A DNA stretch of 64,000 nucleotides, from NCBI GenBank assembly GCA_963807635.1, contig CAWEDJ010000071.1:1-64000 (forward strand). The letters are read 5' to 3'. Positions 6,748 to 58,427 of the stretch are shown here, in pieces (within the stretch, counting starts at the first letter, position 1; every line of letters starts with the position of its first letter). Both the position numbers and the translations under genes were made by a program. The DNA comes from an uncultured cyanobacterium. Lineage in GTDB: Bacteria; Cyanobacteriota; Cyanobacteriia; Cyanobacteriales; Microcystaceae. The notes under the pieces are model-generated. The model did not search any database and was not told the origin of the DNA. It worked only from the letters and a program-made list of their open reading frames with translations.

Positions 6748-6795
6748 AGAGGATAGAAATCTTCCATTAGAGATACATCAACTTCTCGCTAATTC

Positions 6796-6813
6796 TTTAC
6801 AATTGGTTACAAT
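6796..6813 (+). promoter_or_regulatory. HLR1 (RpaB-binding) direct repeat overlapping a candidate -10 element
   Basis: TTTACAAT-TG-GTTACAAT matches (G/T)TTACA(T/A)(T/A)-N2-(G/T)TTACA(T/A)(T/A), 43 bp before the vte4 ATG. Confidence 0.6.
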
Positions 6814-6856
6814 GTGGAAGTGTGTTAACTAAAGACGGAAAACGGTTCAAATCCCA

Positions 6857-7735: not shown

Positions 7736-7745
7736 ATTCTAGGTT

Positions 7746-11015: not shown

Positions 11016-11070
11016 AAAACATTAAGGTTTAGCCAGAGAAACAAACTGATCACGATCGCAGAAAAAAGGA

Positions 11071-31245: not shown

Positions 31246-32283
31246 TTAGTGATTAAACCACTCTAATAATCGATTTGCAAATTCTTTCCTATGCCAATTC
31301 TCGACAGCAAAGCGAGGTAATTGAAAAGGATCACTCTTTTGCCAGACAAATTCTTCAAAAGTCGAGCAAGCACAGTCAAATCCAGCAGAGCGAGTTAATT
31401 CAACGGTCTCTACGGTGCGATCGCCAAAGGGATAAGAGAAGCTCGTCACGGGACGATTGAGCATCTGTTCTAAATCTATTTTGCTTTGCTTTATTTCATC
31501 TCGTTGCAATGCAGTCGTTTGTGCTGAGAGAAAAGGATGAGTAACGGTATGACCTCCAATTTCCACTAATTCCCCTTCTGCTAAGGCGGATAACTCTTTA
31601 GGTAAAAGGGAACGATAAGTAGCGCGTGGTGTTGGTTCAGCCACAGCCCATTCAAGGATTTCGTCTAGTATCCTTTGGCGTTCCTTTTCTAACAAAGGTC
31701 GCAATATTTGCCAAATTGAATAATACAAAGACATTCGAGAACCTGATTTCGCTTCCCAGGCTTTACAAGTGCGATCGCGTTGATAATCTTGTTCAGTATA
31801 ATTTACTGCTTGATCCAAGTTCCATTGATAAACATTGCCATCAATATTGAGAGACAGTTTTTCTGGTAATTTTCTGGGTTGTAAAAGCAATCGCTCTAAT
31901 TCATCCCACCAAAACTCACGATTCTGTCCAATAGAACCAGTACTAATGAAAAAAGTCGCTGGAATCTTGTATTTTTCTAATAAAGGTTTAGCATTGTAAA
32001 GATTATCTGCATAACCGTCATCAAAGGTGACAACCACTGCTCGATCTGGAAGTTTATTCTCTCGCAGAGCTTCTACCAATTGCTGAAGGCTAAGGGGACG
32101 ATAGTATTTTTGTAAAACTTCTAGATGTTCGGCAAAATGTGATGGTGTCACACATAAAGACCAAGGATTTATCTCTACCTCAGCGACACGATGGTACATC
32201 AAAATCAATCCTTTGGAAGAAGCTAGTTTTTTCTGTAGCCGTGTTAATATTCGCTGTAATTTGTCTCTTCTAAAAATTTTCAT
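31246..32283 (-). CDS. Polysaccharide deacetylase (NodB/CE4)
   Basis: LMYHRV, TFDDGY, HTVTH, FSYPFG. Confidence 0.9.
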   Translation of the reverse strand: MKIFRRDKLQRILTRLQKKLASSKGLILMYHRVAEVEINPWSLCVTPSHFAEHLEVLQKYYRPLSLQQLVEALRENKLPDRAVVVTFDDGYADNLYNAKPLLEKYKIPATFFISTGSIGQNREFWWDELERLLLQPRKLPEKLSLNIDGNVYQWNLDQAVNYTEQDYQRDRTCKAWEAKSGSRMSLYYSIWQILRPLLEKERQRILDEILEWAVAEPTPRATYRSLLPKELSALAEGELVEIGGHTVTHPFLSAQTTALQRDEIKQSKIDLEQMLNRPVTSFSYPFGDRTVETVELTRSAGFDCACSTFEEFVWQKSDPFQLPRFAVENWHRKEFANRLLEWFNH

Positions 32284-33065
32284 TAACTAACCTTAGGTTT
32301 CACTGCTCTAACGGTTATCAAGACTTGATAGCTAGGATCACGATAATTCAACTCTTTTGAATTGAGTTCCTGGCTAGATAATCCCTGCAAAAAAGCTGTA
32401 GCTGTCAACACATTTCCATAGGTCTCTACTTGAATATTCTCCTTGGGAAATGCTTCTAAAAAAAGTCGTTGGGTAGAGGCTGTTGTAAAACCCCAATACC
32501 AACAAGATGAACCCCAACTTTTATCATCTTTTCCAGGATCTAATATTGGAGTAAGATTCGGAAGAGTTGCCAACAAAACTCCGCCAGGTTTTAAAATGCG
32601 ATAAATTGTTTTCACTGCGCTTCGCACATCATAGAGATATTGCAGTGTTTGAGTCAGGATAAAGCAGTCAAAGGTATCAGATGGAATTTGAGGAGCATTA
32701 GTGAGGTCTCCAACTATCGTGGCTTTTGGGTTGTCTTCTATCGCATGAAGCACATCGCTTTTAGTGACGCGATCGCCCCCATATTTATTGGTATAAGAGC
32801 TATCTCCAATTTCCAAGACACGCCCTTTAATCTCATCAGAATGACTGGCAAGAAAATTCTCAATATAGTAGCGATCAATTGGTTGTCCTCGTTCTATCCC
32901 CCAATTATTGCTAATCGGTTTTAATCGTCGCAGATCTCCCATGCGGACACGATCCAACGGAGGATCGAGTTTAAGTACTTGCCATTGAGTTTTAATCCAG
33001 TGGAAAACAGAAGATGGCAATGTTTGTTGTGCTATTAACTTTAATTGCTGGTTATTGATCATCAT
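32283..33065 (-). CDS. SAM-dependent methyltransferase (type 11-like)
   Basis: RGQPIDRYYIE, VLEIG, FDCFILTQTL, RILKPGG. Confidence 0.82.
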   Translation of the reverse strand: MMINNQQLKLIAQQTLPSSVFHWIKTQWQVLKLDPPLDRVRMGDLRRLKPISNNWGIERGQPIDRYYIENFLASHSDEIKGRVLEIGDSSYTNKYGGDRVTKSDVLHAIEDNPKATIVGDLTNAPQIPSDTFDCFILTQTLQYLYDVRSAVKTIYRILKPGGVLLATLPNLTPILDPGKDDKSWGSSCWYWGFTTASTQRLFLEAFPKENIQVETYGNVLTATAFLQGLSSQELNSKELNYRDPSYQVLITVRAVKPKVS

Positions 33066-33123: not shown

Positions 33124-34277
33124 TCAGTCTATTTGGACAATTTGTTCAAACTTTTCATAAAAAGTTTGCCAAGCTTTTTCAAAAGAAAGATTGGTCTGAC
33201 AAAAATTTAGGCATCTATCACTATACTCTTTGCGGTTATTCATAAGTTCAGTTACAGCAGCAGGTATTTCAGATGGATTGTTAACCAATACACCTAATTG
33301 ATAATCTTTGACAAACGATAAGTAAAACATAGGGTCTTTTGAAGCGATAACAGGTGAACCACAAGCTAGACTGCGCAGTAACTTTCCCGATGAAAACCCC
33401 AGATATTCAATGGGTTTACCAAAATTGCGATACAGTGCAAAATTCCCTGCACAATATGAAACTAGAGAGTTAAGGTGTCCTTCTGACATTGGTTCATAGC
33501 TCCAAATAACTTTGCCTGGAACTTCAAGATGGGATAATTGTTGGCGGTATTTTTCTACTTTTTGGTGATAGGCACTATGTAATATTAAGACAGCTTTTTC
33601 GGCCAATAAGGCAGAGTAGATAAGAGTTCAGGAGTTTGTGCCCAATCGGCTATTGAACCTGCATATAAAAAAGGAATACAATCGCTTGAAAGTTCTAATC
33701 TTTCATGCCAATTTATTTCTTCAAGCGGATGATTAATAATTGCCATATTAGGCAACACAGCGTAGGGTTTGTTCGCAATATCTAATTCTTCGCACAAAGG
33801 CACAAAACGTTTTTCGTCAAGAACTACAACCATCGCCGCATTTTTGACTGCTTGTCGTTCAAGTCGTGTCCAACGACTGTAAGCAAATGCGCAAGGAAAC
33901 TCATCATTTAAGTAAATAAAGGGACATTGACTAGATTTCGCAATGATGTCTGCAATATAAGCACCAATTTGACCTAAACCAAAAACACAACAGTAATTTG
34001 TCTGCCATTGAAACTGCCATTGAAACTGCAAAGGTCGCCAGATCGGCTTTAGTCGGTTAAACCGTAATGGCTCCCTAAACTCTTTGATAGTGACTGTATC
34101 TGGCAATAAATTTTTATAATTGTCAGAAGGTTCTTCCCAAAGATAAAGATCTATCTGCCAGCCCATTTTTGCTAGGAATATAATCGAATTGAGTGCAAAT
34201 GGCATTGATTCTAAACGTCTTAAGTTTGGGTCTTGGGGATGATAAATAAAAGCAATTTTTTTTGGTTTCATATACAA
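33124..34277 (-). CDS. GT-B glycosyltransferase-like protein (frameshift near 33601)
   Basis: LYAGSI motif in the 5' ORF and SSGKLLRSLACGSPVI in the 3' ORF; one added base gives PYWPEKAVLILH. Confidence 0.7.
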
Positions 34278-34360: not shown

Positions 34361-35128
34361 CTAAGCTTCTCCCACAAAATACACTCCCCAAGTATTAAAA
34401 TTTGGTTGACGGCCTGTCATCCATTCACCACAATCAACAATCTTTAATCCAAATAAATTCATAAATAAATTTAATTCTTGTTGGAAGAGATAACGCATTT
34501 GATGGGTTTCTTGAAGTTCATGAACTGAACAACTATTCTTATCTTTAATAAAGACTTGATAATTAACATCAACTAAATTGTCATTGGGATATATTTCAGG
34601 CTCGGCAATTCGAGTGATTTGGACTTCTTCATTTTCTAGCCTTTTAATACGAACTGTGGGAGATTCACTTAATACGGCAGGGCCATACCAACAGTCGAAA
34701 ATAAATACTCCGCCAGGTTTGAGATGTTCTTTAACCGTTGCAAAGGCCGCTTGTAAATCTTCATTTGTTGTTTGATAACTAATTACATGAAACAAAGAAA
34801 GAATAACATCAAATTTTTGATTAAGCCTAACTTGGCGTATATCTCCTTGCCTAAAAGTAAGATTTGAAGCTAAATTAGTAGGAAGGTTCGATAAGCGATC
34901 GCGGGCTTGTTGTAACATTTCCTCACTTAAATCAATCCCATGAATGCTGTAGCCTTCTTTAGCGAGGAGCATTGCATGATTACCAGTCCCGCAGCCTAAC
35001 TCAAGAATTGATTGACCATTGGGTGCATGATTCTGAATAAGCCGATGAATAAATTTTGCTTCTCCAATATAATCTTTATCTCGATAGAGCAAATCATAAT
35101 ATCGGGAGTAGTTGCCAAAAACAGTCAT
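34361..35128 (-). CDS. Class I SAM-dependent methyltransferase (sugar N/O-methyltransferase-like)
   Basis: YYDLLYRDKDY, LELGCGTG, HLKPGG. Confidence 0.88.
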   Translation of the reverse strand: MTVFGNYSRYYDLLYRDKDYIGEAKFIHRLIQNHAPNGQSILELGCGTGNHAMLLAKEGYSIHGIDLSEEMLQQARDRLSNLPTNLASNLTFRQGDIRQVRLNQKFDVILSLFHVISYQTTNEDLQAAFATVKEHLKPGGVFIFDCWYGPAVLSESPTVRIKRLENEEVQITRIAEPEIYPNDNLVDVNYQVFIKDKNSCSVHELQETHQMRYLFQQELNLFMNLFGLKIVDCGEWMTGRQPNFNTWGVYFVGEA

Positions 35129-35379: not shown

Positions 35380-36267
35380 TTAATTTTTTTGAAAAATTAA
35401 ATATTTTGTCCCATCTTTACTAAAAAAACTGCCAACAAATATAAACTCTCTTTTAGTAAAGAAATTTATCGCGTATATTTCACCAAAAAAACAGGGATAA
35501 TTGTAATCAGAATCTAGCCAATATTTGACCTTTTCATCATCTAAACAATCTTCTGTAAAAATATCAAAAACTACATATCCTAGTTCTTGGTGACTCGAAC
35601 TATTTCGAGAAGATATCTATAAATTATAAGAAATGGTAAGTAAACAAATACGCCATGAGCTGTAACTAAATCAATAGAAGAATCTGATGTATAACTTAGA
35701 GATTTTCCATCAGTAGGATGAGAAACTATTTTATATTTTTCAGTTAGCCATTTTGCCCAATCGTCATCAGGTTCATAACTTTCATAACGAGCTGGTTGAC
35801 ATAAATTGATAGTTTGCTCAACATATAGACCAGCTCCCGTTCCAATTTCACAGATATTTTGAATTGTTTGATTTAAAATGTCGAATTCTTTTAGTTGATT
35901 AATAACAATTTCCCTGTTATAGCCAATCTAAATGGGATGTGAACAGGCAAAAGATGAAATCTTTTAATTACCCAAAGCTCAATTAGCTTCTCTCCATGAC
36001 TTCTGTTAGAAATAAGGAATCAGTAAAAAGAGCTTCAAGTTTTCACAATTGGTTTAGGCTCGCTATATCATTGTGATTCCATATTTTATCCAAATAATCA
36101 GGAACAGAAAGATTACTTTGAGAAGCCGCATAAATCGTCTCCTTAGCAGATACATACCCTAACGCATTTCGATTATTAGCTACTTTGCTAATCTCTATCC
36201 CCAAAGATCTAGTTAAGCTTAGTACAGTTTTTTTAACAGATTTTTTCACTTTTTGTTGGAATTTCAT
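35380..36267 (-). pseudogene. SAM-dependent methyltransferase interrupted by a MITE (plus a one-base shift near 35586)
   Basis: Removing 35918-36067 except one TA restores ...WNHNDNREIVINQLKEFDILNQTIQNICEIGTGAGLY...SIDLVTAHGVFVYL; the 3' part ends YLIFQKN then stop at 35380. Confidence 0.88.
35918..36067. mobile_element. 146-bp MITE with TA target duplication (IS630/Tc1-mariner type)
   Basis: Ends TA-TAGCCAATCTAAATGGGATGTGAA and, on the reverse strand, TA-TAGCGAGCCTAAACCAATTGTGAA; excision restores the host frame exactly. Confidence 0.9.
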
Positions 36268-37383
36268 TTATCTAATTACCTCATATAAAGCCAGAGAAAC
36301 TTGTTGAATTTGCTCATCAGTTAAAGCCATTCCACTCGGAATATAAAAACCTCGACGAGCATTTTTTTCCGCAATAGGATAAGATTCTCCTAAAAATAAT
36401 CCCATTTTTTGAAAAACAGGTTGTTCGTGCATTCCCCAGAAAAAAGGACGAGTCCCAATTTTCAATTCTCCTAAACGACGCATGGCTTCTTTGGCATCAA
36501 AATTTACCTCATCTTTAAGGACAATTCCATAAACCCAATAAATATTATTAGCATAATCAGTTTTAGCTAAGGGTAATTGCAAACAAGATAAATCAGAAAG
36601 CAACTCCGTATATTGTTTACCTATATTTCGTTTCCGAACAACAAATTCATCCAGACGCTCTAATTGGGCAATCCCTAAAGCCGCTTGTAAATTAGTCATA
36701 CGGAAGTTCCAACCCAACTCATAATGGACAAAACGTTGCTGGGGTTGAAAACATAAATTGCGGAGAGATAAGCACCGCTCTGCTAACAGTTGATTATCTG
36801 TAACAATCATGCCACCTTCACCCGTTGTAATGTGTTTATTGGGGTAAAAACTAAAGGTGCTAATCGTGCCAAAACTACCACAGGGTTTATCGCAATAGGT
36901 TTGACCGTGCATTTCGGCGGCATCTTCAATAATCTGTAAACCATATTTTTCTGCTAAAGCCAAAATAGGGTTTATATCCACTGGTAAACCGTAAATATGC
37001 ACCACCATAATGGCTTTAGTACGAGGCGTTATTCTGTCCTCAATTTGGTTTATGTCCATATTCCAGGTCAGGCGATCGCAGTCCACCAGAACAGGAGTCG
37101 CCCCTGCCCGAACAACTGCCGTCGCACAGGAGATAATGGTGAAGGTAGGCATAATCACTTCATCTCCCTTGCCAATATCCAAAGCGGCAACAGCAACATC
37201 TAGGGCAACAGAGCCATTACAGACCGCAATGCCGTATTTACGACCAACACGAGCCGCCATTTGCTCTTCAAACTGTTTAACAAATGGCCCTTCCGAAGAA
37301 ATCCAACCCGTATCAATACACTGATTCAGATATTTCTTTTCGTTACCATTAAGCAACGGTTCATTAACAGGAATAGGTTTCAT
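36268..37383 (-). CDS. DegT/DnrJ/EryC1/StrS PLP aminotransferase (perosamine synthase-like)
   Basis: GWISSEG, IEDAAE, FSFYPNKHITTGEGGM, GWNFRMTNLQAA. Confidence 0.92.
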   Translation of the reverse strand: MKPIPVNEPLLNGNEKKYLNQCIDTGWISSEGPFVKQFEEQMAARVGRKYGIAVCNGSVALDVAVAALDIGKGDEVIMPTFTIISCATAVVRAGATPVLVDCDRLTWNMDINQIEDRITPRTKAIMVVHIYGLPVDINPILALAEKYGLQIIEDAAEMHGQTYCDKPCGSFGTISTFSFYPNKHITTGEGGMIVTDNQLLAERCLSLRNLCFQPQQRFVHYELGWNFRMTNLQAALGIAQLERLDEFVVRKRNIGKQYTELLSDLSCLQLPLAKTDYANNIYWVYGIVLKDEVNFDAKEAMRRLGELKIGTRPFFWGMHEQPVFQKMGLFLGESYPIAEKNARRGFYIPSGMALTDEQIQQVSLALYEVIR

Positions 37384-40251: not shown

Positions 40252-41472
40252 TTATTTTGCCCAATCCATCGGCTCAATTGGCTCAAATGTTGTTGTTAAA
40301 TGAACAGTTGATCCTATATGAAATGCTTGATGAATGGCAATAACTAATTCATTATTATGTAATGCAAAATCAGCAGATAAACGATTAGGCCGTTGTTCAG
40401 TGATAGACGCTGCCATTTCTGCTACACCTCGACTTAAGTCCATCTGCATACCGCTATCTTCGTACCATTTTGATTTTGGAGGTTTTCGTACTAACGGATA
40501 AATCATCTTGGTTTGTTGTTTCATTAAAATTTTAGTCTGAATACGCTTCGCATAACTAAAGAATTTTTCTGCAAGAACAATGCTTTTTTTAAAAATATTA
40601 AATTCTGTTGAGTTAGTTAATGAAGATTTCTCTCTATATTCAACATATATAGGAGCATCATAAAACCAGCACTCTTCAGTTTCTAAAATGCCATGATCAC
40701 CAATAATTTTCAGCGAATGATTATGGGGGGCAACAATACTACAAGTAAGTCTTGCTACGACTCCAGACTTGAATTTGATACACGCTACTGAGAAATCGGG
40801 AGTATCAGGTGGTTCTAGTAACTCATCGCTAACTTTATTAGGAATTAAACAAGAAGCAAAGGCCGTAACTGATTCTGCTGGGCCAAAAAATGCAGTTAAC
40901 CAAGTAACGTAATAACCTGCATGTTCAAGGGTACAACCTATTTCAAATTCATCTTGATACGGCCAAGGAATACCCGATACGCTTAACCAGGTTTTATAAG
41001 AAGATTTATGTATCATTCCGTCGTCTATTTCAGCATAGACTAAACGCACTTTACCAACGGCATTTTCACGAACAGCTTTCCAGAGAGTCTGTGCTGTTTC
41101 ACCGAGAAGACTACAGGGAGCCGAAGTAATCTGTAAGCCTTGTTGATTGGCTAAGGCAACCAGATTTTTGCTCTCTGAAATCGTCATGGCTATTGGCTTT
41201 TCAGAATAAACGTGCTTACCTGCCTCTAAGCAAGCCTTAGAAACTTCATAATGGCTTCGAGGATTGGTTAGGTTTAAAACAATATCAACGTTACTATCCG
41301 TGAGTAGTTCATCCAGTGTTTCATAAAAAGGAATTGAGTGATATTGGGAAAATTTAACAGCGCGATCGCGAATTGTGTCCATCACTCCTACCAATTCCAA
41401 CTCAGGATGTTCAGGTAGTGTCTGAACATAGTAATCAGCAATATGACCACATCCAACAATAGCAATTTTCAT
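40252..41472 (-). CDS. Gfo/Idh/MocA family oxidoreductase
   Basis: IAIVGCG, H...GKHVYSEKP. Confidence 0.88.
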   Translation of the reverse strand: MKIAIVGCGHIADYYVQTLPEHPELELVGVMDTIRDRAVKFSQYHSIPFYETLDELLTDSNVDIVLNLTNPRSHYEVSKACLEAGKHVYSEKPIAMTISESKNLVALANQQGLQITSAPCSLLGETAQTLWKAVRENAVGKVRLVYAEIDDGMIHKSSYKTWLSVSGIPWPYQDEFEIGCTLEHAGYYVTWLTAFFGPAESVTAFASCLIPNKVSDELLEPPDTPDFSVACIKFKSGVVARLTCSIVAPHNHSLKIIGDHGILETEECWFYDAPIYVEYREKSSLTNSTEFNIFKKSIVLAEKFFSYAKRIQTKILMKQQTKMIYPLVRKPPKSKWYEDSGMQMDLSRGVAEMAASITEQRPNRLSADFALHNNELVIAIHQAFHIGSTVHLTTTFEPIEPMDWAK

Positions 41473-41610: not shown

Positions 41611-44327
41611 CTAGGTTTTAGACAAAATTTTATCTATTTCAGTCTTGATTTTTTCAGCTAACACTTGAATATTAGGAGTTTCTAACATGGTATAGTGATC
41701 ACCAGGCACTTGATGAATATCCAAATCCATATCTCTTAAATTTAGCCACGCCCTCTCAGGTGCTTCATAGGTATAGTATATATTAGGGACTTTATCAATT
41801 TCTAACTCTCCATTTTTGAATTTTACCCATCTCTCATCAGATGGATTAAGGATCAATGACGAAGAAAATTCTATAAAAGAGTTAGCCTTATAAAAAGTTA
41901 CCTTGCCTGGGTAAGATTTAGGAGTATAATACTCCAATATATGTGTACCGTAGCCATTATCAATATGTGCAAAATAGCCATCAGAAAAGGAAAAGTGATT
42001 AGAAGAATGTAATTTTGTTGATACTTGAGACTTGATTTTTTTCAAAATTTTAGTAGGTCTCAATTTTGAAGTTTTATAGAGTCTTTTAATTATTGACTTG
42101 TTCTTTACCCAAATATCAAGAAGTAAAAAATTCAATATGTTATAGACTCTTTGATGGATGGGAAACGCTATTTTGTTTTTTTCTAGATACGTATCACTTA
42201 AAGCGAGTAAGCCTACCTGTTGACCTTGCTCAGTTAGTTGTTGAGCTATCTCATAGGCAATCACACCACCAAAAGAATGACCGACTAAAAAGTAAGGCCC
42301 CTCTGGCTGAAGCGATCGCATTTCCTCAATATAGTGAGTAGCCAAATTCTCCAGCTTAGGTAAAGATAATTCAGTATCTACAGGGCCTCCTATCCCATAA
42401 CGTAATCCATAAAAAGGTTGCTCTAGTCCTAGACAATTGGACAATTCTTTATAGACAAGAAAATGTATTCCAAATAAAGGAGGACGAGAACCCTGGGGTT
42501 GAATCGGAACCAGGGAATACCAGGAAGGTAACTCCACCTGAGAGGATACAACTTTAGCCAACTTCTTGATAGTGGGGGCTAAAAAGATAGTTGAGAGGGG
42601 AAAACTTTTATTAAAAGCTTTTTCCATTTGAGACAAAACCTGAGTGGCTAAAAGCGAATAGCCTCCTAATGCAAAAAAATTATCATCAATGCCAATTGGT
42701 TCGACCTGCAAGACTTCAGACCAGATTTTAACCAATTTTTCTTCTAAAGGTGTTACTGGCTCTTTGTACTCAGATTTTGCTTCCGTTGCAGGATCGATAG
42801 GAGTTAATCCTAATTTTTCAGCTAATCCTATACGTTGCAACTTTCCCGTTGGGCCTGTCGGTATTTTGTCAAGAAATAAAACAACACGGGGTACTTTAAA
42901 ATCAGCGAGTCGTTTTGTCGCAAACTCCTTAATTTCTTGTTCTGTTGTAGATGCTCCTTCCTTAAGAATCACCGCAACAGCCACATCTTCGCCTAACAGA
43001 GTGTGGGAGGCGGCAAACGTAACAACCTGTTTAATGGCGGGATGATCTAGTAATACTTCATCCACTTCACGGGGAGAAATTTTTTCACCACCACGATTAA
43101 TAATTTCCTTAATACGCCCTTTGAGAAAGAGATAATTGTCCCCATCTAAATAACCCAGATCACCCGTTCTAAACCAACCGTTAGTAAAAGCCGTTTGATT
43201 CGCTAGAGGATTATTTTCATAGCCTTGGGTAACATTCGCTCCTTGAATCGCGACTTCACCCACTTCACCCGAAGGAAGTATATTCCCAACGTCATCCAGA
43301 ATAGTGACTTTTGGGCCAGCCGCTAGTCCGACCGAACCAGGTTTGCGTTGTCCTGGGGGTAAAGGATTGCTGGCCATTTGGTGAGCCGCTTCAGTCATTC
43401 CATAGGCTTCAATAACAGGAGCATTAAAAACCTGTTCTAGTTCATCCATAACTTGGGGAGGCAAGGAGGCAGAAGAAGAACGGATAAACCGTAGTGACTG
43501 AATGTTAGACATTTTAGCGGGATTCGTTTTAGCCTTTTCCAAAATCATCTGGTGCATGGTCGGAACGGCACTGTACCAGGTCGGTTGAAATTCTTCTAAA
43601 TAATCTAAGAATTTAGGCGCATCAAAACCTGCGGTACAGACAACACTAGCACTAACATTTAAGGATGATAAAAGAACTGCCACTAATCCATGTATATGGA
43701 ATAATGGCATCACATTCAAACAGCGATCGCTTTGACTTAAAGCTAAAGTCTGACTAATTGTTTGGGCGGAGGTCAACAAATTTGTGTGGGTTAGAGGCAC
43801 TATTTTGGGACGCGAAGTTGTTCCTGAAGTATGCAGAACGAGAGCAACATCATCAGTCTGAGCAAAGCCTTTATTCGCTGTGTACTGAGGTTCACCTCCA
43901 GTCAGCGCAAATATTCCTGCTTCGGCGGTTAAAACAGGCGTGAGTTCGATGATGGAATATTTCGTTCTTTAGCAATCGTTCTAGCGGCCTCAGCAAAATC
44001 TTTTTGTACGATTAACGCTTTTGCATTTAGATCCGATAGATAAAAATCAAATTCCCCAGCGAGGTAAGCAGGATTCAGAGGCGCACAGGTAGCACAAGAT
44101 GCGACGGCTAAAAAGGCGACTGCTGTTTCTGGCCCATTGGGTAAAACAAGAGCAACTCTGTCTGTTCGACCGATGCCGATCGCATTCAGTTTGGCTACCA
44201 CTTGCTCAACCTGTGACAACAAGCTTTTATAGGTCAAGGGTTGACGACCAGGAGCATGGATGGCGATCGCATCAGGAATATTCTTAGTTTGAATAGATAG
44301 CCAATGATAGATATCAAAATTACTCAT
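41611..44327 (-). CDS. Single-module NRPS-like A-T-TE protein (~905 aa) with oxalate-CoA-ligase-like adenylation domain; frameshift near 43954
   Basis: One added C joins the ORFs and gives DDVALVLHTSGTTSRPKIVPLTH; also PLFHIHGL, LRFIRSSSASL, EAYGMTEAAHQMASNPLPP, GPTGKLQR; carrier NFFALGGYSL; TE GHSFGG and GDH. Confidence 0.85.
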
Positions 44328-44381
44328 TTTACTGATTGCTTAAAATTGCTTAGATGCTAGTTTTTGGCTCAAAGTTATCGC

Positions 44382-45236
44382 TTATTTGGAGTGAACATAG
44401 GAAGCGTCATAGCGACTGGCCAAATTCATAATGAGATGCTCATTACATTCTGCTAGTCCTACTTGTTTCTTCTCTAGCCAGCCATCATTGTCTTTTAAAA
44501 AGGCGATTTCCTGTTCAATGGCCGCCTGAGCCGCAAACAAACAAGGAGTACTGTAATTGACCAGTCGCACTCCTGCTTCTTGTAATTGTTGGAGATTACA
44601 AGCAGGAGATTTCCCCCCTGCAATTTGATTAAATACTAGTGGGATGTGTATTTCTTCTTTAAGAACCCTGATCGTTTCCAGATCCTTAATTCCATCTGCC
44701 AAAATAGCATCAGCTCCTGCATTCACAAATGCTTTTGCTCTTCTGACAACTTCTTCAAGTTCCCCCGCATCTGTACGGGCAACAACAAATATATCTTTGC
44801 GAGTTGCTAATACTTTCTCTAGTTTCCTTAAATAATCATCCAAGTCCAAGAGTTGTTTCCCATCAAGATGGCCACATCGTCTGGGACGTTTTTGATCTTC
44901 CATAATCACACCCGCTACTCCCATTGTTTCTAATAAAGTCACAACATGGGATGCCACTTCTATATCGACATATCCATCATCGATATCAACTAATAGATAA
45001 TGATTGGGTAATATCGTTCTGACTCGGTGGACAAAACCTAGTATATCTGACCAACTGATAAAGCCAATATCTGGTAAACCATAATGACTAGCGGCAAAAC
45101 CAAATCCACTGATAAAAATTCCCTCGAAATACTTAGCCGCTATAGAGGCTGAAAAGACATCATATACACCGATAAAAGGAAATATATCGTCCTGTTTGAT
45201 TTTTTCACGAAAGAGGTTTGTTAAATTTTCTGACAT
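44382..45236 (-). CDS. Isocitrate lyase/PEP mutase superfamily C-C lyase (oxaloacetate hydrolase / methylisocitrate lyase-like)
   Basis: SGFG, GLPDIG, DIDDGY, EDQKRPRRCGH, VARTD motifs. Confidence 0.85.
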   Translation of the reverse strand: MSENLTNLFREKIKQDDIFPFIGVYDVFSASIAAKYFEGIFISGFGFAASHYGLPDIGFISWSDILGFVHRVRTILPNHYLLVDIDDGYVDIEVASHVVTLLETMGVAGVIMEDQKRPRRCGHLDGKQLLDLDDYLRKLEKVLATRKDIFVVARTDAGELEEVVRRAKAFVNAGADAILADGIKDLETIRVLKEEIHIPLVFNQIAGGKSPACNLQQLQEAGVRLVNYSTPCLFAAQAAIEQEIAFLKDNDGWLEKKQVGLAECNEHLIMNLASRYDASYVHSK

Positions 45237-45579: not shown

Positions 45580-46842
45580 TTACGTTGGTGTTTTCCATCG
45601 ATGTGGTATAAAAACACTACCAAATGAATCTAATACAGGACGATTTCGTATTTGTTTTCCTTCAACCTGAAAGGATGCCGCGTACTCCACATAATCAACG
45701 ACTTTTCCTTCTTCACTACTCCAAAGTCCCGCATTAATCCTATAACGACCAGGTAGAAGTAACAGTTCGTCAATTTCACAAATAAACTTGCTTTCCTTTG
45801 TTGAAATGATCATATCTTCTCGACTATATGCAGAAGAATCAAATAGAGTAACTGGCTGACTATGTTGATTATAGATTGAAAAAAAGCAGACTAATCCTGG
45901 ATATATCTTGGTAGCATAAAAAACGAAAATAGCAGAAGAACCTACTATTAATGTATCAGATAAATCACTTTCCGCACCATTGAATTTCATGTCAATGAGT
46001 CGTGATTCACCACTCCCATTACGATCTGCTCGTTCTGAAAGATTTTGAGATGATGCTTTTTCTAAACTTCTAATGTAACTTTCTACTACTTTATTAGCCG
46101 TGTCATTAGCTAAAATAGTTCCTTTTCCAAGGAGAATACCATGAGTGCAAAGTGATTGTAATATTCCCAAGTTATGACTAACAAATAATATTGTTCTTCC
46201 CTCTTTACCAACCTCTTCCATTTTTCCTAAGCACTTCTTCTGAAACTGAGCATCTCCAACGGCTAAAACTTCATCCACAATCAAAATTTCAGGTTCCAAA
46301 TGGACTGCCACAGCAAATGCCAACCGCACATACATACCCGAAGAATAATGCTTCACTGGTGTATCTAAAAATTTCTCTACCTCAGCAAAATCGACAATTT
46401 CATCAAATTTTCTCGTTATTTCTGCTTTGCTCATTCCTAAAATTGCACCGTTAAGATAGGTATTTTCTCTTCCTGTCAACTCAGGATGAAAACCCGTACC
46501 TACTTCTAATAAACTAGCGACTCTTCCCTTAATTGAGATTCGGCCAGATGTTGGCTCAGTAATTCGACTTAAAATTTTCAATAGTGTTGATTTACCTGCA
46601 CCATTACGTCCGATAATACCAACGCGATCGCCTTGTTTGATTTCAAAAGAGATATCTTTCAACGCCCAGAAATCTTCTTTTTGTGAGTTTTGTACCTTGA
46701 ATTTTTGATTGTGTATATTTTTTAAGAAAGATATGCTTTTATTCGTTATAACATCTCTTAAAGCAGTATATCTTTCTTGCTTTTGATGTTTAATAATATA
46801 CCTTTTACTTAAATTTTCAACTTGAATAATGGTATCAGACAT
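45580..46842 (-). CDS. wzt: Polysaccharide ABC transporter ATP-binding subunit with C-terminal Wzt_C domain
   Basis: GRNGAGKST, YSSGMYVRLAF, IVDEVLAVGD; C-terminal LLPGRY beta domain. Confidence 0.92.
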   Translation of the reverse strand: MSDTIIQVENLSKRYIIKHQKQERYTALRDVITNKSISFLKNIHNQKFKVQNSQKEDFWALKDISFEIKQGDRVGIIGRNGAGKSTLLKILSRITEPTSGRISIKGRVASLLEVGTGFHPELTGRENTYLNGAILGMSKAEITRKFDEIVDFAEVEKFLDTPVKHYSSGMYVRLAFAVAVHLEPEILIVDEVLAVGDAQFQKKCLGKMEEVGKEGRTILFVSHNLGILQSLCTHGILLGKGTILANDTANKVVESYIRSLEKASSQNLSERADRNGSGESRLIDMKFNGAESDLSDTLIVGSSAIFVFYATKIYPGLVCFFSIYNQHSQPVTLFDSSAYSREDMIISTKESKFICEIDELLLLPGRYRINAGLWSSEEGKVVDYVEYAASFQVEGKQIRNRPVLDSFGSVFIPHRWKTPT

Positions 46843-50894: not shown

Positions 50895-51723
50895 CTAAAT
50901 CACATCTGCAAAGGTTCGTTCGGTTTTACGGAAATACCAAATTCCCGTAATCATAAAAAAGGCAACTATAAATAAAGATAAAAGAAAGCCAGGTAAATAG
51001 ATATTATATTGTGTTCCTAAAATTGCCCATCGAAACCCATCGATTACCCCAACCATCGGATTTAAGGAGTACAGCAAACGCCACTTTTGAGGAACGATAT
51101 TACTACTGAAACCGACGGGAGAAATATAGAGTCCAAACTGAACAATAAAGGGAACAATATAACGAAAATCACGATATTTTACATTCAGTGAAGCCAACCA
51201 TAAACCTGCTCCCATTGAAGCGGCAAAGGCGAATCGCGATAAAAAAGGGTAAAGTCAGAATACGCCAACTGGGAACAAAGTTGTACCAAGCCATTAAGCC
51301 CAATAAAATCATGCCTGAGACGAGAAAATCTACGAAACTCACGACGACGGCACTGGTGGGAATAATTAATCGAGGAAAATAAATTTTAGAAATCAGGTTG
51401 GAATTGGTAATTAAACTATTACTACATTCAGTCAATGAATTAGAAAAAAATTGCCAAGGTAACATGGCTGAAAATACCAAAATGGGGTAGGGAACGCCCT
51501 GGGAAGGTAGTTTGGCGATACTTCCAAACACCACAGTAAAAACAATCATTGTCAGAAGAGGACGAATTAATGCCCAAGCAATGCCAATGAAGGTTTGTTT
51601 ATAACGGACTAAAATATCACGCCAAGCGAGAAAATAGAAAAGCTCTCGATATTTCCAAATATCTTGCCAATACTGTTTTTCAGTTCGTTCAGCTTCGATA
51701 ATAATAGTCGATTTAGCAGTCAT
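50895..51723 (-). CDS. wzm: Polysaccharide ABC transporter permease (frameshift near 51232)
   Basis: RDILVRYKQT, LISKIYFPR, NVKYRDFRY, LNPMVGVIDGFR, ERTFADVI. Confidence 0.92.
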
Positions 51724-51782: not shown

Positions 51783-54021
51783 TTAATCTACATTGTTGAC
51801 AATAATTCCTGCTATTTGGCTTTGATTTGTTCTCAGGTTTTCTAGGGTATCCAGGATGATCGCCCGCTCGGCACGTTTTAAATCAACAACAAATGCGACT
51901 TCATCCACTTTGGGAATAATGCTTTGGGCATCGGCTAATTCGGAAATTGCGGAAGTATCTATCAAAATATAATCATACACTTGTCGCCATTGTTCTAGCA
52001 TGAGATTCATTTTGGGAGAAACTAACCACAAAAAGGAGCTAGTGATTTCGGGGCCTGCCGTCAGGACATCGGGATAACCTTGATGAACGGGGGGAGTTTC
52101 TGCCATTGTGAGAACCGAAGCCTTGGTTAAAACCGAACCCGATAGAGCATTGGAGTTAGGTCTTGCACCATTAGTCGAATTTTCCGGAGAAAAATCGAAA
52201 TTATCCCCAGTATAGAGAGATTCCTCTCTTTCTTGGGGGGCCGTTGATTGAACTAAGCTTTGCCAAGTTAAATCGGTCGCGATCGCGGTGCTGAGACCTT
52301 GGGAGTTGGGCAGGGAAAAAACTTGATGAATTTTAGGATCTGCAAGATTAGCATCCACAATCAAGACTCGTTTTCCTAGTTCAGCTAATACCCGTCCCAA
52401 GTTACAAGTCATGGTTGTTGTGCCTTCTCCCGTTGTGGCCGCCTGCAATCGCGATAGCCTGACCAATCCGATGAGAAGTTTGCAGAGAGAGAGAGAGAGC
52501 TAAAGAACGAATCGCCTCAGTAAAAGCATTAGATTTATTTACTAGACCTGACTGGGAATTTTTGAAAACAGAAACCTGCCCTTGGGCTTTAGGAATTAAT
52601 CCCAAGATAGGCAAAGGAATCATTTGTTTGAGTTCCTGAAGATTTCTAAAACGTTGCTCAATTTTGTCTAGCCAAACAGCCATCGCTGCACCAGAGATAA
52701 TCCCCGCCAACAAAGCCAATATTAGGCCGCGATTGCGATTTTTATCCACAGGCATAGAAGATAACATCGGTGGTTCAATTACCTTCCAAGATGACGTTTC
52801 CTGAGCTTCCATGATGCGGAGTTCCTGGAGTTTTTTCTTAAAGGCATCAACAGTTTGCATATTGTCGGCTTCACGACGCTGGAGAGTTTTATAGGTCTGT
52901 TGTAATTTAAGTAGGCGATCAAGGTCTAAATTAGCCAATTTTTCCTGCTGACGCAGTTGGGGTAACTGTTTTTCCTGAGTTGACAAGCTAATCTGAAGTT
53001 GAGATAATTGACTTCCTAATGCTTGTAAAATTTCTCCATTTTCAATGTTTTTGGAGGCTATGAGAGAATTCTGTGTCCCAATCACCTGCTGACTAGACTT
53101 GCTTAATAACTGATTGAGTTCATCAATTTGTTCTTTCAATAACTTCAAGCGGGGATGGTCGGGCGTATAAAGAGCCTTTTCCGATTGGTATTGAATATTT
53201 AGAATTTGTAATTGCTTGACAATAGACTGATAGGTACTATCTTGGCTTAAAACAGCATCAGCCAATAGGGTTTTAGCATTTTGTTGGAGAGACCTGATTT
53301 GACTTTGTAAAGCTTGGTATTGTTGTTGGGTTTGATAAAGAGTTAATTCAGCCTCTGCAATCTTGACTCGAAGATTTTCTTTTTGAGAATAGGCTAAATT
53401 GATTCCCGCTTCCCCGTCGCCCAGATTGTTACGAATCCGAAAATTAGTCAATTCACGGGACGATTTTTCTAACTCCGCTTGGGCTTGGGGTAATTTTTTC
53501 TCAATAAACCGAACCGCATTGGTAACTGGCGATCGCTGGGTATCCCGTCCATACTCCAAATAGGTAGCGACTAAGGCATCTAAAACAGCCTTCGCTTGGA
53601 GAGGATTCTCATCTTCATAGGAGATAGAAAGAACCGTCGTATCTTCGGGTTGGATCAGCCGTAAATTTTTAGCCAGTAATTCCAAAGAAATTCTTCGATA
53701 GCGAGCATCCAATTTGTTGATCGCCTTACTGAGTAGAGATTGACTTCTGAGGACTTCAATCTCCGTAGGCAAATTAGCCACTTTATCCTTAGAGGAAGTC
53801 GAACCCGATTCTTCCGATTGAACAACTGGCACTGAGACCTTATTCCCCACTAAAATCAAGGATTGGGTTTGGTATAACGGTTTACGGAGAACGAGATATC
53901 CTACTCCCCCCAGAACCACTAGGGCGGTAATACTTGCAGGTAGCCAATGTCGCCTAACCGCAGTCCACCAACTAGTATTAGAGGAGGCGAAATCCGAAAC
54001 CATCATCTTCATATTTTCCAT
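51783..54021 (-). CDS. wzc: GumC/Wzc-type polysaccharide co-polymerase with degenerate kinase domain (frameshift near 52440)
   Basis: Two TM helices around a coiled-coil periplasmic region, TEIEVLRS, PILGLIP, EAIRSL, then a BY-kinase-like domain. Confidence 0.85.
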
Positions 54022-57764: not shown

Positions 57765-58427
57765 TTAATCGGAGGACGGATAATGGGAAACCCACCACTT
57801 AAACCAAGATTGCCCCGCGTTTTGGAGTATTTTTTGAGAGTTGTGATTTTCTGACGGTGTGGATAGGGTTAAATGCGACCAGAGACAGCGTTGATCCAGT
57901 AGATTGGATTTTCCCCAGAGCCACCCCAAGAAACCGTTTAAAGTTTTTCCTGTAACTAATTTCGTCCGTAGGAATTGATCCGCCGTCACCGTACTCGACC
58001 CCTGGGGATTGATGCAGGCACTCAAATAGGAACGATTCTGATGATTTCCTAAGGCGATCGCGCCCATCCCCTCTTGATGAGTTATCTGAGAAATAGAAGT
58101 ATCTCCAATATATTTACGCAAGAGATTAGGAATGTCCGCTTCTGCCGTATTCAAATAACGCATTTGAATATTTAGCGTCAAACCATCGGGCGAGAGGTAT
58201 TGATAGGAGCGGCTGGCAATAGGGGTTAACTCATTGGAGCTAGGGAACTCTAAGGTATGACTCCTAACTTGTTTCCAGCCTGATAGAGGAACTTTTTCAG
58301 GAAAAGAAAAAGGCGCGACGGTCGGACGGGAAAGTAAGGGAGTTTTGATGCCCCAAAGAGAGCTGACTATTGTTCCACCCAGGGCGATCGCTAAAACAGA
58401 GGGACGATAGAAATTCCAATGTTTCAT
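57765..58427 (-). CDS. Cyanoexosortase A system-associated protein
   Basis: FPEKVPLSGW, YLSACINPQGSSTVT, DQRCLWSHL; overlaps the crtA stop. Confidence 0.85.
   Translation of the reverse strand: MKHWNFYRPSVLAIALGGTIVSSLWGIKTPLLSRPTVAPFSFPEKVPLSGWKQVRSHTLEFPSSNELTPIASRSYQYLSPDGLTLNIQMRYLNTAEADIPNLLRKYIGDTSISQITHQEGMGAIALGNHQNRSYLSACINPQGSSTVTADQFLRTKLVTGKTLNGFLGWLWGKSNLLDQRCLWSHLTLSTPSENHNSQKILQNAGQSWFKWWVSHYPSSD

Follow-up and report, generated by a model that had tools for sequence, protein, structure and literature searches.

Gene organization of the locus

The window, which refers here to the whole 64,000-nucleotide stretch of cyanobacterial DNA that was analysed, contains a glycan locus of about 40 kb. 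Between 18 and 55 kb, Pfam searches identified GT1, GT2 and GT4 genes, SDR epimerases, methyltransferases and a DegT aminotransferase. A cassette of two genes, one for a lyase and one for an adenylation-carrier-thioesterase (A-T-TE) protein, is co-oriented within a run of about 30 glycan genes on the same strand and adjoins the gene for Wzt. The principal features are as follows.

36268-37383, minus strand: DegT/DnrJ/EryC1-family sugar aminotransferase (Pfam PF01041, 6.2e-111)
40252-41472, minus strand: GFO/IDH/MocA oxidoreductase, directly downstream of the cassette (Pfam PF01408, 2.2e-26)
41611-44327, minus strand: whole A-T-TE gene, reconstructed length about 905 aa
41611-42528, minus strand: type-I thioesterase domain (Pfam PF00975, 1.2e-22)
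42529-42786, minus strand: carrier (PP-binding) domain (Pfam PF00550, 7.9e-14)
42787-44327, minus strand: adenylation domain of the oxalate-CoA-ligase (AAE3/Pcs60) type, in two frames across a break
41614-43968, minus strand: open frame of the remainder of the A-T-TE gene, 785 aa, with the stop codon at 41611-41613
43929-44327, minus strand: N-terminal ORF of the A-T-TE gene, 132 aa
43954-43955, minus strand: frameshift site within the A-T-TE gene (a CC run that lacks one base)
44382-45236, minus strand: ICL/PEP-mutase-superfamily lyase gene, 284 aa
45580-46842, minus strand: Wzt, an ABC-transporter ATPase with a C-terminal glycan-binding domain, directly upstream of the cassette
about 51.0-51.7 kb: Wzm-like ABC-2 permease with internal stops

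The gaps around and within the cassette are short (343, 54 and 138 nt). The 54 nt that separate the end of the lyase ORF from the beginning of the A-T-TE gene agree with the first-pass annotation, which had described two adjoining co-oriented genes 54 bp apart. That annotation had also placed the pair in the middle of a glycosyltransferase/Wzm-Wzt cluster; the flanking glycosyltransferase genes and Wzt bear this out, but from its position at about 51.0-51.7 kb the Wzm-like gene is not adjacent to Wzt. The assignment of Wzt is based on Pfam ABC_tran (1.9e-24) and Wzt_C (2.4e-09), and on NCBIfam models of galactan and teichoic-acid export ATPases.

Two other genes of the locus may be considered in terms of an amino sugar. 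The DegT aminotransferase, which scored 327 bits against the NCBIfam LegC-family model (cut-off 420), is a candidate source of a free sugar amine. The GFO oxidoreductase matched the NCBIfam UDP-GlcNAc 3-dehydrogenase weakly (54 bits, under the cut-off) and is a candidate sugar 3-dehydrogenase feeding the transaminase. Despite the presence of the aminotransferase, no hexapeptide or GNAT N-acyltransferase was found in the glycan locus. The GC content is 0.41 at 42-44 kb compared to 0.32-0.37 in the neighbouring glycan genes.

The interrupted reading frame

In the sequence as given, a -1 frameshift interrupts the A-T-TE gene after codon 124, and nine codons further on the frame is closed by a stop. 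This upstream frame has KERNIP at the break, while the second frame reads IIELTPVLTAEAGIF. Since the family consensus at this point is GIPIIELSP, one base is missing from the CC at 43954-43955, which is where the frameshift had been reported. At least six other genes in the 64-kb window are also split:

8848-9848: Zn-ADH
11022-12270: argG (argininosuccinate synthase)
33124-34277: GT
51021-51723: Wzm-like gene
51783-54021: Wzc-like gene
58424-59315: exosortase

With this many split genes, argG among them, an assembly indel is the most likely cause of the break, and a dead gene is less likely.

A lyase with a Cys gating loop

The lyase (Pfam PF13714, PEP_mutase, 2.2e-39) has the gating loop EDQKRPRRCGH, which contains the Cys-loop sequence (RRCGH, or K/R-x-C-G-H) of oxaloacetate acetylhydrolase (OAH). 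Its placement in the Cys-loop lyase branch rather than among the PEP mutases, as first suggested, was confirmed. PEP mutase and CPEP mutase were rejected as identities, with the CGH loop present instead and scores far below cut-off (TIGR02320, 81 against 320; TIGR02319, 125 against 420). While prpB is the best NCBIfam model for the protein, it is also below cut-off, and a PrpB methylisocitrate lyase was rejected on TIGR02317 (169.6 bits against 354.4) and NF008455 (144.5 against 353). A comparison with the PDB gave 130 bits for 4iqd, a lyase annotated as CPEP mutase, followed by petal death protein (PDP, 111), dimethylmalate lyase (DMML, 110), methylisocitrate lyase (MICL, 108) and OAH (3lye, 103). 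With OAH at 103 bits and the others at 108-130, a specific relationship to OAH was also rejected.

Ser229 of the lyase aligns with Ser257 of PDP, where DMML, MICL and 4iqd have Pro. OAH activity is marked by an active-site Ser, Ser281 in fungal numbering (PMC8224569, PMC3256194). This marker Ser is presumably equivalent to PDP Ser257 and DMML Pro240. Ser229 was retained in 24 of 24 sampled members of the subfamily, and the cyanobacterial paralogues of about 35% identity have Pro or Ala. Compared with these paralogues, the subfamily has the signature DIDDGY, EDQKRPRRCGH, LADG, NQIAGGKSP and NYSTPCLF, the last of which contains Ser229, and two otherwise conserved Glu are replaced in the lyase (LADG and NQIAGG). 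Judged by these motifs, the lyase forms a separate subfamily of the ICL/PEP-mutase superfamily. It is proposed to be an oxaloacetate hydrolase that supplies oxalate. The CGH loop described earlier is present, and a Ser occupies the position presumably linked to OAH activity; the protein is no closer to OAH than to other lyases.

An oxalate-CoA-ligase-type adenylation domain fused to a carrier and a thioesterase

Pfam identified AMP-binding, AMP-binding_C, PP-binding and Thioesterase domains in the A-T-TE gene and no Condensation domain, in agreement with the stand-alone architecture described at first. All of the motifs quoted in the first-pass annotation were present (EDQKRPRRCGH, HTSGTTSRPK, LFHIHG, RFIRSSSAS and EAAHQMASNPLP). 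The adenylation domain had been assigned to the oxalate-CoA ligases, and this is upheld by its scores against solved members of the family, namely yeast Pcs60 (8aff, 372 bits), AtAAE3 (5ie0, 367) and Lathyrus OCS (6qjz, 365). These are about twice the 189 bits obtained with 4CL, the best-matching ligase of other specificity.

The pocket is also kept. Residues of the AtAAE3 oxalate pocket are given in PMC8905533. Two of them, S289 and H319, are specific to the oxalate-CoA-ligase family. Equivalents of S289, H319 and K500 are found in RFIRSSSAS, EAAHQM and TGKLQR, and are conserved in 26, 25 and 26, respectively, of 26 A-T-TE proteins. Of the eight pocket residues, five match AtAAE3 and the others are substituted (V to I, C to S, A to G). 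Among NCBIfam models, "FadD7 family fatty acid-CoA ligase" gives the domain its best name, with 376 bits against a cut-off of 650. We know of no enzyme assay on a bacterial protein of this clade. A free-standing CoA ligase of about 515 aa was ruled out, as the protein is about 905 aa with PP-binding and Thioesterase domains fused. From this fusion it follows that the first half-reaction would resemble that of the family, but that the protein is no CoA ligase by architecture.

Free-standing bacterial homologues are 60-68% identical to the adenylation domain. A PanE/ApbA reductase gene lies directly downstream of them in 14 of 25 loci by Pfam and in 57 of 80 by tblastn; a tblastn search found no PanE-like reductase in any of the carrier-fused loci examined. 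In M. extorquens, PanE2 acts as the reductase of oxalyl-CoA (PMC8411744).

The pantetheine Ser of the carrier domain lies in the sequence GGYSLL (codon 42655-42657) and is invariant in 26 of 26 family members; an Sfp-type PPTase is encoded elsewhere in the genome. The thioesterase has the intact triad of a type-I enzyme, composed of Ser565 (GHSFGG), Asp592 and His758. The AlphaFold model of the thioesterase has a mean pLDDT of 66.9 with a long lid modelled at low confidence, and its best Foldseek matches are NRPS/PKS thioesterase domains, including that of Pks13 (TMq 0.57, E 2e-13). The domain is proposed to be an off-loading acyltransferase, and its fold likeness to thioesterase domains is uninformative on the acceptor. 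Across 26 relatives the nucleophile varies (Ser in 14, Cys in 7, Gly in 4 and Arg in 1) and the His is missing in some.

Distribution of the gene pair

Among 400 genomes of the same order, 11 have an orthologue of the lyase, as do 7 of 301 genomes of another family. With the lyase as the sole query, 19 loci were retrieved, and in 15 of them an AAE3-type adenylation domain was directly beside it; pairs were also found in Verrucomicrobiota, Acidobacteriota and one alphaproteobacterium. These counts support a pairing that exceeds chance, with the two genes travelling together across phyla. Linkage to NRPS genes was seen in 15 of the 19 loci. The remaining observation from this set concerns three loci (L178-L180) in which the lyase and an A-T-TE gene lie among non-glycan genes (TetR, HlyD, FtsX and ABC genes, an O-methyltransferase and release-factor fragments). 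From the other direction, the lyase was absent from 9 of 12 A-T-TE loci checked.

Several loci contain sugar genes. In a Verrucomicrobial sugar locus (L018), two lyase copies flank an A-T protein fused to a hexapeptide acyltransferase, with a G1P cytidylyltransferase, a UDP-sugar dehydrogenase and PIG-L as neighbours. A ligase and lyase lie beside a Wzx-type flippase in L066. Relatives of the A-T-TE gene are found beside DegT and a sulfotransferase in L013 and L166, and beside GT2, with or without hexapeptide and SDR genes, in L162 and L163. In the genome under study, the A-T-TE protein is the sole NRPS-like protein. The cassette was not found in five genomes of the same genus, among which the glycan locus is not syntenic. 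As to whether the pair recurs in polysaccharide loci, it does recur across phyla, but mostly linked to NRPS genes, and no case of the lyase and A-T-TE genes inside a large glycan locus was found beyond this window.

Proposed pathway and alternative explanations

From these results, the cassette is a real, uncharacterised system in which two neighbouring genes probably produce oxalate and load it onto a carrier protein, and which may let the cell attach oxalate, a small metal-binding acid, to a surface sugar chain. The half of the proposal in which oxalate is made and activated is well supported by the sequence comparisons and the gene neighbourhoods. The proposal as a whole, with an acceptor in the glycan of the surrounding locus, is put forward tentatively as one that falls somewhat short of probable.

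In the first step, the lyase would, on balance, split oxaloacetate into oxalate and acetate. The adenylation domain, whose family assignment and pocket are evident from the alignments, would then probably adenylate oxalate and thioesterify the pantetheine arm of its own carrier rather than CoA. The thioesterase would take the oxalyl group onto Ser565 and hand it to a nucleophile other than water, since hydrolysis would amount to a futile cycle. Transfer to a glycan is suggested here by genomic position. By that position, the best candidate for the acceptor is an amino sugar, or a hydroxyl, of the Wzm/Wzt-locus glycan, an assignment made with some reserve. Transfer to one or the other would leave a free carboxylate on the resulting oxalamide or oxalyl ester. 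No oxalylated bacterial glycan was found in literature searches.

The acceptor might instead be unrelated to the product of the locus. The two genes would then be a self-contained unit. They might acylate an amine or alcohol in solution to make a small N- or O-oxalyl compound, for instance a metallophore, or they might modify a common envelope component, and their position would be incidental because glycan loci are hot spots of gene gain. The raised GC content at 42-44 kb (0.41 against 0.32-0.37), the absence of the cassette from the five same-genus genomes and the lack of synteny of the locus are all consistent with this. So are L178-L180, which have no glycan genes nearby and one of which adjoins an HlyD/FtsX/ABC exporter and an O-methyltransferase, and the majority of lyase/A-T pairs, which prime NRPS lines that would yield N-acyl dipeptides. 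Against it are the co-orientation and the 343-, 54- and 138-nt gaps within a same-strand run of about 30 glycan genes, the recurrence of sugar-gene neighbours at L013, L018, L066, L162, L163 and L166, and the lack of another N-acyltransferase in the locus for the aminotransferase product. Overall, an unrelated acceptor is considered rather unlikely. The substrate could also differ, if a lyase of the methylisocitrate, dimethylmalate or isocitrate type supplied pyruvate or glyoxylate and the adenylation domain loaded a near-isosteric 2-oxo acid or another small acid. The lyase is about equidistant from all characterised lyases with prpB as its best NCBIfam model, the adenylation domain is named for FadD7 (376 bits), and three of its eight pocket positions depart from AtAAE3. 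However, prpB and FadD7 fall well under their cut-offs (170 against 354 and 376 against 650 bits), the two residues that contact the distal carboxylate of oxalate, a Ser and a His, are retained, and the marker Ser is invariant in the lyase subfamily where paralogues have Pro or Ala. In addition, 57 of 80 loci with free-standing relatives have a PanE partner gene that resembles oxalyl-CoA reductase, and abundant pyruvate would presumably require no dedicated lyase, which together make a different acid improbable.

Two further alternatives concern whether the cassette is active and in which direction oxalate is moved. If the A-T-TE gene were truly broken, either as a pseudogene or in a phase-variation off-state, the cassette would be idle in this strain. 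The frameshift after codon 124 with its stop nine codons on would have this effect, and a precedent is wbeL of V. cholerae O1, a ligase-like gene on which the O-antigen N-acyl group depends and which a homopolymer indel switches off (PMC3441752). The run in question is merely CC with no long tract, all conserved motifs and the thioesterase triad are intact in the two halves, and the similar splitting of at least six other genes in the 64 kb, argininosuccinate synthase included, points to assembly indels; a broken gene is thus very unlikely. Disposal of oxalate, in which the protein, like free-standing oxalyl-CoA synthetases, would activate it to be catabolised or detoxified, is the most improbable of these explanations. 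The homology of the adenylation domain to catabolic oxalyl-CoA synthetases is in its favor, as is the formation of oxalate by cyanobacteria during photorespiratory glyoxylate breakdown. Yet the adjoining gene putatively makes oxalate, carrier-fused forms never occur with the PanE-like reductase of the free-standing ligases, no decarboxylase or formyl-CoA transferase was found within the window, and loading oxalate only to hydrolyse it would waste ATP.

To our knowledge, oxalate in bacteria is a waste product or growth substrate and not a building block, and its use in a surface glycan has yet to be described. If the proposed oxalate cassette is correct, a protein-bound oxalyl thioester would act as an acyl donor in biosynthesis and have a supply enzyme of its own, and one starter module would serve both the peptide assembly lines of many cyanobacteria and the surface glycan in the window. 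The oxalamide or oxalyl ester would give the cell surface a strong Ca/Fe-chelating negative charge, which in cyanobacteria would matter for mineralisation of the sheath, for the capture of metals and for recognition by phages or grazers. The proposal also provides a testable function for two large families that are now annotated merely as "AMP-binding protein" and "isocitrate lyase/PEP mutase family protein". In a far more speculative extension, the oxalyl group would cap a non-reducing terminal amino sugar and be read by the C-terminal domain of the adjacent Wzt, setting chain length and licensing export; more broadly, a portable "oxalyl-S-carrier" module would serve NRPS, Dlt-like and glycan pathways. 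A parallel is found in the methyl, phosphomethyl and Kdo caps that end other ABC-dependent O-antigens.

Comparison with known systems

The lyase has its superfamily and the Cys gating loop in common with fungal OAH and with petal death protein, a plant protein that shows OAH activity; its Ser229 aligns with PDP Ser257, presumably the OAH marker position. Both are distant (103-111 bits), and the lyase of the window, with its putative activity, falls in a subfamily of its own (DIDDGY, RPRRCGH, LADG, NQIAGG). The thioesterase has the same fold as that of Pks13 from Mycobacterium tuberculosis at about 18-20% identity. The Pks13 thioesterase acylates trehalose on a sugar hydroxyl and does not use water as the acceptor; it differs in having a very long lipid substrate, and the fold match is common to many hydrolytic and cyclising thioesterases.

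The logic of the cassette is that of DltABCD and AlmEFG, in which a small acid is adenylated, loaded on a carrier and moved to an envelope polymer. These systems have a separate small carrier and a membrane acyltransferase, in contrast to the fused carrier and soluble thioesterase found here. A search of the genome, which is 93.7% complete, gave no MBOAT (PF03062) match at E <= 0.01. With a fused carrier and no MBOAT found, the cassette is not a Dlt-type system by its parts.

The tetronate pathway of V. cholerae O1 (wbeK-O) includes an ACP-like protein. Likened by description, it resembles the cassette in having a ligase-like enzyme within an O-antigen locus and an unusual acyl group; it differs in its C4 hydroxy acid, its separate proteins and the lack of a thioesterase. 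The O-antigen locus is ABC-transporter-dependent. The ligase-like enzyme is needed for the N-acyl group of perosamine, an amino sugar (PMC3441752).

Oxalate assimilation in M. extorquens by oxalyl-CoA synthetase and PanE2 is related through the adenylation domain, which is 60-68% identical to the PanE/ApbA-linked free-standing ligases. That route is CoA-dependent and catabolic, whereas the window protein has carrier and thioesterase domains, a lyase partner and no PanE. AAE3, OCS and Pcs60 belong to the same adenylation-domain family, are about 55-60% identical by eye in alignments, and have the same oxalate-binding Ser, His and Lys. Oxalyl-CoA made by AAE3 is not only degraded: in the beta-ODAP route it N-acylates an amine through the BAHD enzyme BOS to yield an oxalamide (PMC9061259, PMC11310188). 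Relative to that route, the cassette would use a fused carrier thiol in place of CoA and a fused thioesterase in place of a BAHD transferase, and it is bacterial, with a dedicated, putatively oxalate-forming gene adjacent.

Organization of the cassette

The lyase and the adenylation (A)-carrier (T)-thioesterase (TE) protein, A-T-TE, lie in a region where every gene is encoded on the minus strand.

Features of the cassette and of the transporter genes in the window
About 51.0-51.7 kb, minus strand: Wzm-like ABC-2 permease, with internal stops
45580-46842, minus strand: Wzt (ABC_tran and Wzt_C by Pfam), upstream of the cassette
44382-45236, minus strand: lyase of the ICL/PEP-mutase family, 284 aa
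41611-44327, minus strand: A-T-TE gene, starting 54 nt downstream of the lyase (sequence position)
43929-44327, minus strand: upstream frame of A-T-TE, 132 aa (ORF reading)
41614-43968, minus strand: open frame of A-T-TE, 785 aa, with its stop at 41611 (ORF reading)

Pfam identified AMP-binding, AMP-binding_C, PP-binding and Thioesterase domains in A-T-TE and no Condensation domain. The motifs on which the first-pass annotation had relied were all located in the sequence. Downstream of the cassette are genes for a GFO/IDH/MocA oxidoreductase, an SDR, a GT2 glycosyltransferase, a WbuC-like cupin and a DegT aminotransferase. The cassette belongs to a same-strand run from 18 to 55 kb that contains GT1, GT2 and GT4 genes, epimerases, methyltransferases, a polysaccharide deacetylase and a Wzz/BY-kinase-like pair (Pfam, NCBIfam).

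Four methyltransferase genes or fragments are present in the locus (23663-24316, 32283-33065, 34361-35128 and 35383-35927). Methyltransferases together with a C-terminal glycan-binding domain in Wzt form a pattern typical of O-polysaccharides that are exported in a terminal-cap-dependent manner. A 429-aa membrane protein (24462-25751) resembles those of the polymerase or ligase type. Just beyond the glycan locus, the plus strand (14042-18063) encodes two proteins, one of 664 aa with cadherin-like/Big_9 repeats and one of 608 aa with a pectate-lyase fold.

The upstream frame of A-T-TE ends in ...KERNIP followed by a stop, and the second frame reads on as ...IIELTPVLTAEAGIF. Since the consensus of 26 relatives at the break is GIPIIELSP, one base is missing in the CC at 43954-43955; the comparison of both frames with this consensus confirms the frameshift position proposed at first pass. 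At least six other genes in the window are split, including the Wzm-like gene and those below.

Other split genes in the window (same-strand pieces, ORF scan)
8848-9315 / 9321-9848: Zn-dehydrogenase
11022-11711 / 11695-12270: argG (argininosuccinate synthase)
33124-33606 / 33585-34277: glycosyltransferase
51783-52466 / 52402-54021: Wzz/ATPase pair (Wzc-like)
58424-58879 / 58842-59315: exosortase

The junctions fall at short C/G runs, that of argG in runs of both C and G, and the genome is a draft of 107 contigs. The number of split genes points to a systematic indel problem in the assembly, and for this reason we think that the A-T-TE break is an assembly error rather than the sign of a dead gene. 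Phase variation, a possibility raised by wbeL, is unlikely given that the run is only CC and that many other genes are split.

Predicted oxalate specificity of the adenylation domain

In a search of all solved structures, the top three matches of the A domain were oxalate-CoA ligases: yeast Pcs60 (PDB: 8aff, 372 bits), Arabidopsis AAE3 (PDB: 5ie0, 367 bits) and Lathyrus OCS (PDB: 6qjz, 365 bits). The best ligase of a different specificity, a 4-coumarate-CoA ligase, scored 189 bits. The oxalate pocket of AtAAE3 has been described as comprising Val215-His216, Cys288-Ser289, Ala313-Met314, His319 and Lys500 (PMC8905533). The aligned residues in the window are Ile-His, Ser-Ser, Gly-Met, His and Lys; by this alignment, three contact residues are kept and three lining residues are conservatively changed. 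Among 26 aligned A-T-TE proteins, the pocket Ser and Lys are present in all and the His in 25.

Of the 80 loci retrieved by A-domain patterns, the majority encode free-standing ligases, and a gene for a PanE/ApbA-family reductase begins within a few bases of the ligase end. This reductase was identified by Pfam in 14 of 25 loci (nearest ORFs, 68 ORFs scanned) and by tblastn, with one such protein as query, in 57 of the 80 loci; the same tblastn search found a PanE-type partner in none of the carrier-fused loci. PanE2 of Methylobacterium extorquens is a characterised oxalyl-CoA reductase (PMC8411744). The pairing of free-standing homologues with PanE gives independent support for oxalate handling by the bacterial clade. 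The top NCBIfam model for the A domain, "FadD7 family fatty acid-CoA ligase", would instead imply a fatty acid substrate; its score of 376 bits is below the cut-off of 650, and oxalate is favored by the solved relatives, by the pocket residues and by the pairing with PanE.

By appearance, the free-standing AAE3-type ligase and PanE/ApbA reductase (57 of the 80 loci, numbered within L023-L091) constitute a widespread oxalyl-CoA synthetase/reductase pair. A malate synthase gene is also found upstream of the pair in L025.

Assignment of the lyase

The lyase scored 130 bits against 4iqd, a lyase annotated as CPEP mutase, 111 bits against the petal death protein (PDP, 1zlp), 110 bits against 2,3-dimethylmalate lyase (DMML, 3fa3), 95-108 bits against several methylisocitrate lyase structures and 103 bits against oxaloacetate acetylhydrolase (OAH, 3lye). 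Several structures of PEP mutase, phosphonopyruvate hydrolase and PA4872 decarboxylase scored 58-65 bits. All NCBIfam equivalog scores were far under their cut-offs (prpB 170 vs 354, PEP mutase 81 vs 320). These structure and model scores place the protein in the Cys-loop lyase branch, outside every characterised family. A phosphonate (PEP mutase) reading is ruled out by the loop and by the model scores.

Ser229 of the lyase (NYSTPCLF) aligns with PDP Ser257, a position occupied by Pro in DMML, methylisocitrate lyase and 4iqd. We take Ser257 of PDP and Pro240 of DMML to be equivalent to the OAH marker Ser281. Two papers name this conserved active-site Ser as a marker of OAH activity (PMC8224569, PMC3256194, citing Joosten 2008 and Han 2007). 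The marker Ser is invariant in 24 sampled members of the lyase subfamily, the copies from Verrucomicrobiota and an alphaproteobacterium included, and these share the motifs DIDDGY, RPRRCGH and NQI(A/H)GGKSP. In 15 sampled paralogues of the type common in cyanobacteria (~35% identical), the motifs are DxDTGYG, PKKCGH and NxIEGGKTP, and the marker position is Pro or Ala. Most subfamily members have lost two Glu residues that are conserved elsewhere (LADG, NQIAGG).

Recurrence and genomic context of the pair

Whole-genome searches with the lyase as the only query covered 400 other genomes of the same order, of which 11 have an orthologue (62-69% identical); a degenerate copy was found in addition. 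Orthologues were present in 7 of 301 genomes of another family and in none of the 400 genomes of a phylum-wide sample. A second group of matches in same-order genomes was 34-37% identical. Nineteen lyase loci were examined with up to 20 kb of surrounding sequence each. In 15, the gene directly next to the lyase encodes an A domain of the AAE3 type that shares 55-77% identity with that of the window; for comparison, just 59 of the 401 genomes examined from this order have an AAE3-type gene at all. The A domain is 11 kb from the lyase in L132 and was not found within at most 20 kb in L128, L131 and L176, the lyase of L131 being 333 nt from a contig end. Among the 80 A-domain loci, lyase orthologues (51-59% identical) adjoin the A domain in four: L018 (Terrimicrobiaceae, two copies), L029 (Acidobacteriota), L032 (Verrucomicrobia, a fragment) and L066 (Defluviicoccus). 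Related genomes do not count as independent cases, but the pair occurs in four phyla. As for the surface-glycan setting proposed in the first-pass annotation, the pair does recur, but the window is the only example found of a lyase and A-T-TE within a large glycan locus.

Ordinary NRPS modules are present in 15 of the 19 lyase-retrieved loci. The order in L122 and L125 is A(AAE3-type)-T, lyase, C-(formyltransferase-like)-A-T and C-A-T-TE. This conserved orphan cyanobacterial NRPS cluster (L122:1001-12371, L125:7636-19846, also L121, L123-L127, L129, L130, L175, L177 and L181) probably produces an N-oxalyl dipeptide. A periplasmic binding protein is encoded near it in L125.

The TE domains closest to that of the window (35-40% identity) are those of L178-L180. 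In these three loci the lyase and A-T-TE stand alone. The pair in L178 has an O-methyltransferase and TetR, HlyD, FtsX and ABC genes as neighbors. In L179 (6051-12101) and L180, two release-factor gene fragments flank the pair (PCRF/RF-1 domains at either end), an arrangement that looks like insertion within or next to a duplicated prf gene. L018 has the order G1P cytidylyltransferase, FAD oxidoreductase, PIG-L, UDP-sugar dehydrogenase, lyase, A-T-acyltransferase fusion, lyase; in this Terrimicrobiaceae MAG (4882-9344), near-identical lyases flank an 824-aa fusion of A-T with a hexapeptide-repeat acyltransferase. In L066 the ligase and lyase are accompanied by an RmlC-like gene and a Wzx-type flippase, and the unannotated 478-aa protein of this locus had no PDB match.

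Proteins of roughly 900 aa with the A-T-TE layout account for 109 of the best 120 relatives. A lyase is present in 3 of 12 A-T-TE loci checked. The lyase-less A-T-TE genes of L013 and L166 have a sulfotransferase, DegT and a common protein without known function as neighbors, and those of L162 and L163 lie beside GT2, with or without two hexapeptide proteins and an SDR. The loci L012, L022, L164 and L165 had no informative neighbors. The cassette of L166 (8747-14525) and L013 (416-6213) is common to a cyanobacterium and Candidatus Thiosymbion (DegT 63% and the extra protein 41% identical). This DegT is only 28% identical to that of the window, and the comparison yielded no partner subfamily common to both.

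A TE-only metagenome scan returned 80 loci, 76 with ordinary NRPS/PKS TEs and four with an AAE3-type A domain; two of these four are larger multidomain ORFs and none has the lyase. In five same-genus genomes the cassette was not found, and the synteny test placed the GFO and Wzt homologues on different contigs.

Thioesterase, proposed acceptor and proposed mechanism

The TE triad is Ser565 (GHSFGG), Asp592 and His758. Of 26 relatives, 14 have Ser as the nucleophile and seven have Cys, with Gly in four others and Arg in the last; the His is kept in 21. From these sequences, the domain may be used differently in some family members. The TE of L013, L162 and L163 has a Cys nucleophile and has lost the catalytic His. 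An AlphaFold model based on an 11-sequence alignment had a confident core and a poor long lid (mean pLDDT = 66.9). Foldseek grouped this model with NRPS, PKS and FAS TEs (7crn, 4zxh, the Pks13 TE with TMq 0.57, and the FASN TE), which confirms the predicted TE fold and nothing beyond it.

Loading of oxalate followed by hydrolysis would be futile, and transfer to a nucleophile other than water is inferred on this basis. An amino-sugar acceptor is favored by the operon-like arrangement of the genes, by the GFO-type oxidoreductase and DegT aminotransferase in the locus, and by the A-T-acyltransferase fusion of L018; the stand-alone lyase and A-T-TE cassettes of L178-L180 argue against it. Three further observations favor the amino sugar: no hexapeptide or GNAT N-acyltransferase was found anywhere in the glycan locus, where the 1.1-kb gap at 35.1-36.3 kb contains methyltransferase fragments alone; the genome encodes no NRPS-like protein other than A-T-TE; and it encodes an Sfp-type PPTase. 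A search of the genome for a Dlt-type MBOAT found none.

In the proposed mechanism, the lyase would, on balance, convert oxaloacetate to oxalate and acetate. The A-T portion would quite probably form oxalyl-AMP and then oxalyl-S-carrier, the step held with the most confidence. The TE would then form oxalyl-O-Ser565 and pass the group to an acceptor other than water, a step considered about as plausible as that of the lyase. That the acceptor would be a sugar of the glycan made by the surrounding locus is a tentative proposal, and the whole chain from oxalate supply through glycan acceptor, as stated, is given somewhat less than an even chance. The cassette is a real system that has yet to be characterised. 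Computation gives good support to its "make and load oxalate" logic. A glycan destination, proposed for the window specifically, is reasonable but unproven.

Comparison with known systems

The A domain of A-T-TE is predicted to share its first half-reaction with AAE3 and Pcs60. No bacterial oxalylated glycan or oxalate-primed carrier system was found among the papers listed by full-text searches, from which subscription journals are largely missing; in the largest set of matches, those listed dealt mostly with ODAP or N-oxalylglycine. Carrier-mediated acylation of the envelope is known from the Dlt and AlmEFG systems, and the TE of Pks13 transfers to a sugar. In plants, oxalyl esters on wall polysaccharides are derived from ascorbate, by another route (PMC6099474). 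In the plant β-ODAP route, activated oxalate is converted to an oxalamide (PMC9061259, PMC11310188). In Vibrio cholerae O1, the O-antigen amino sugar carries a tetronate N-acyl group that depends on a ligase (PMC3441752).
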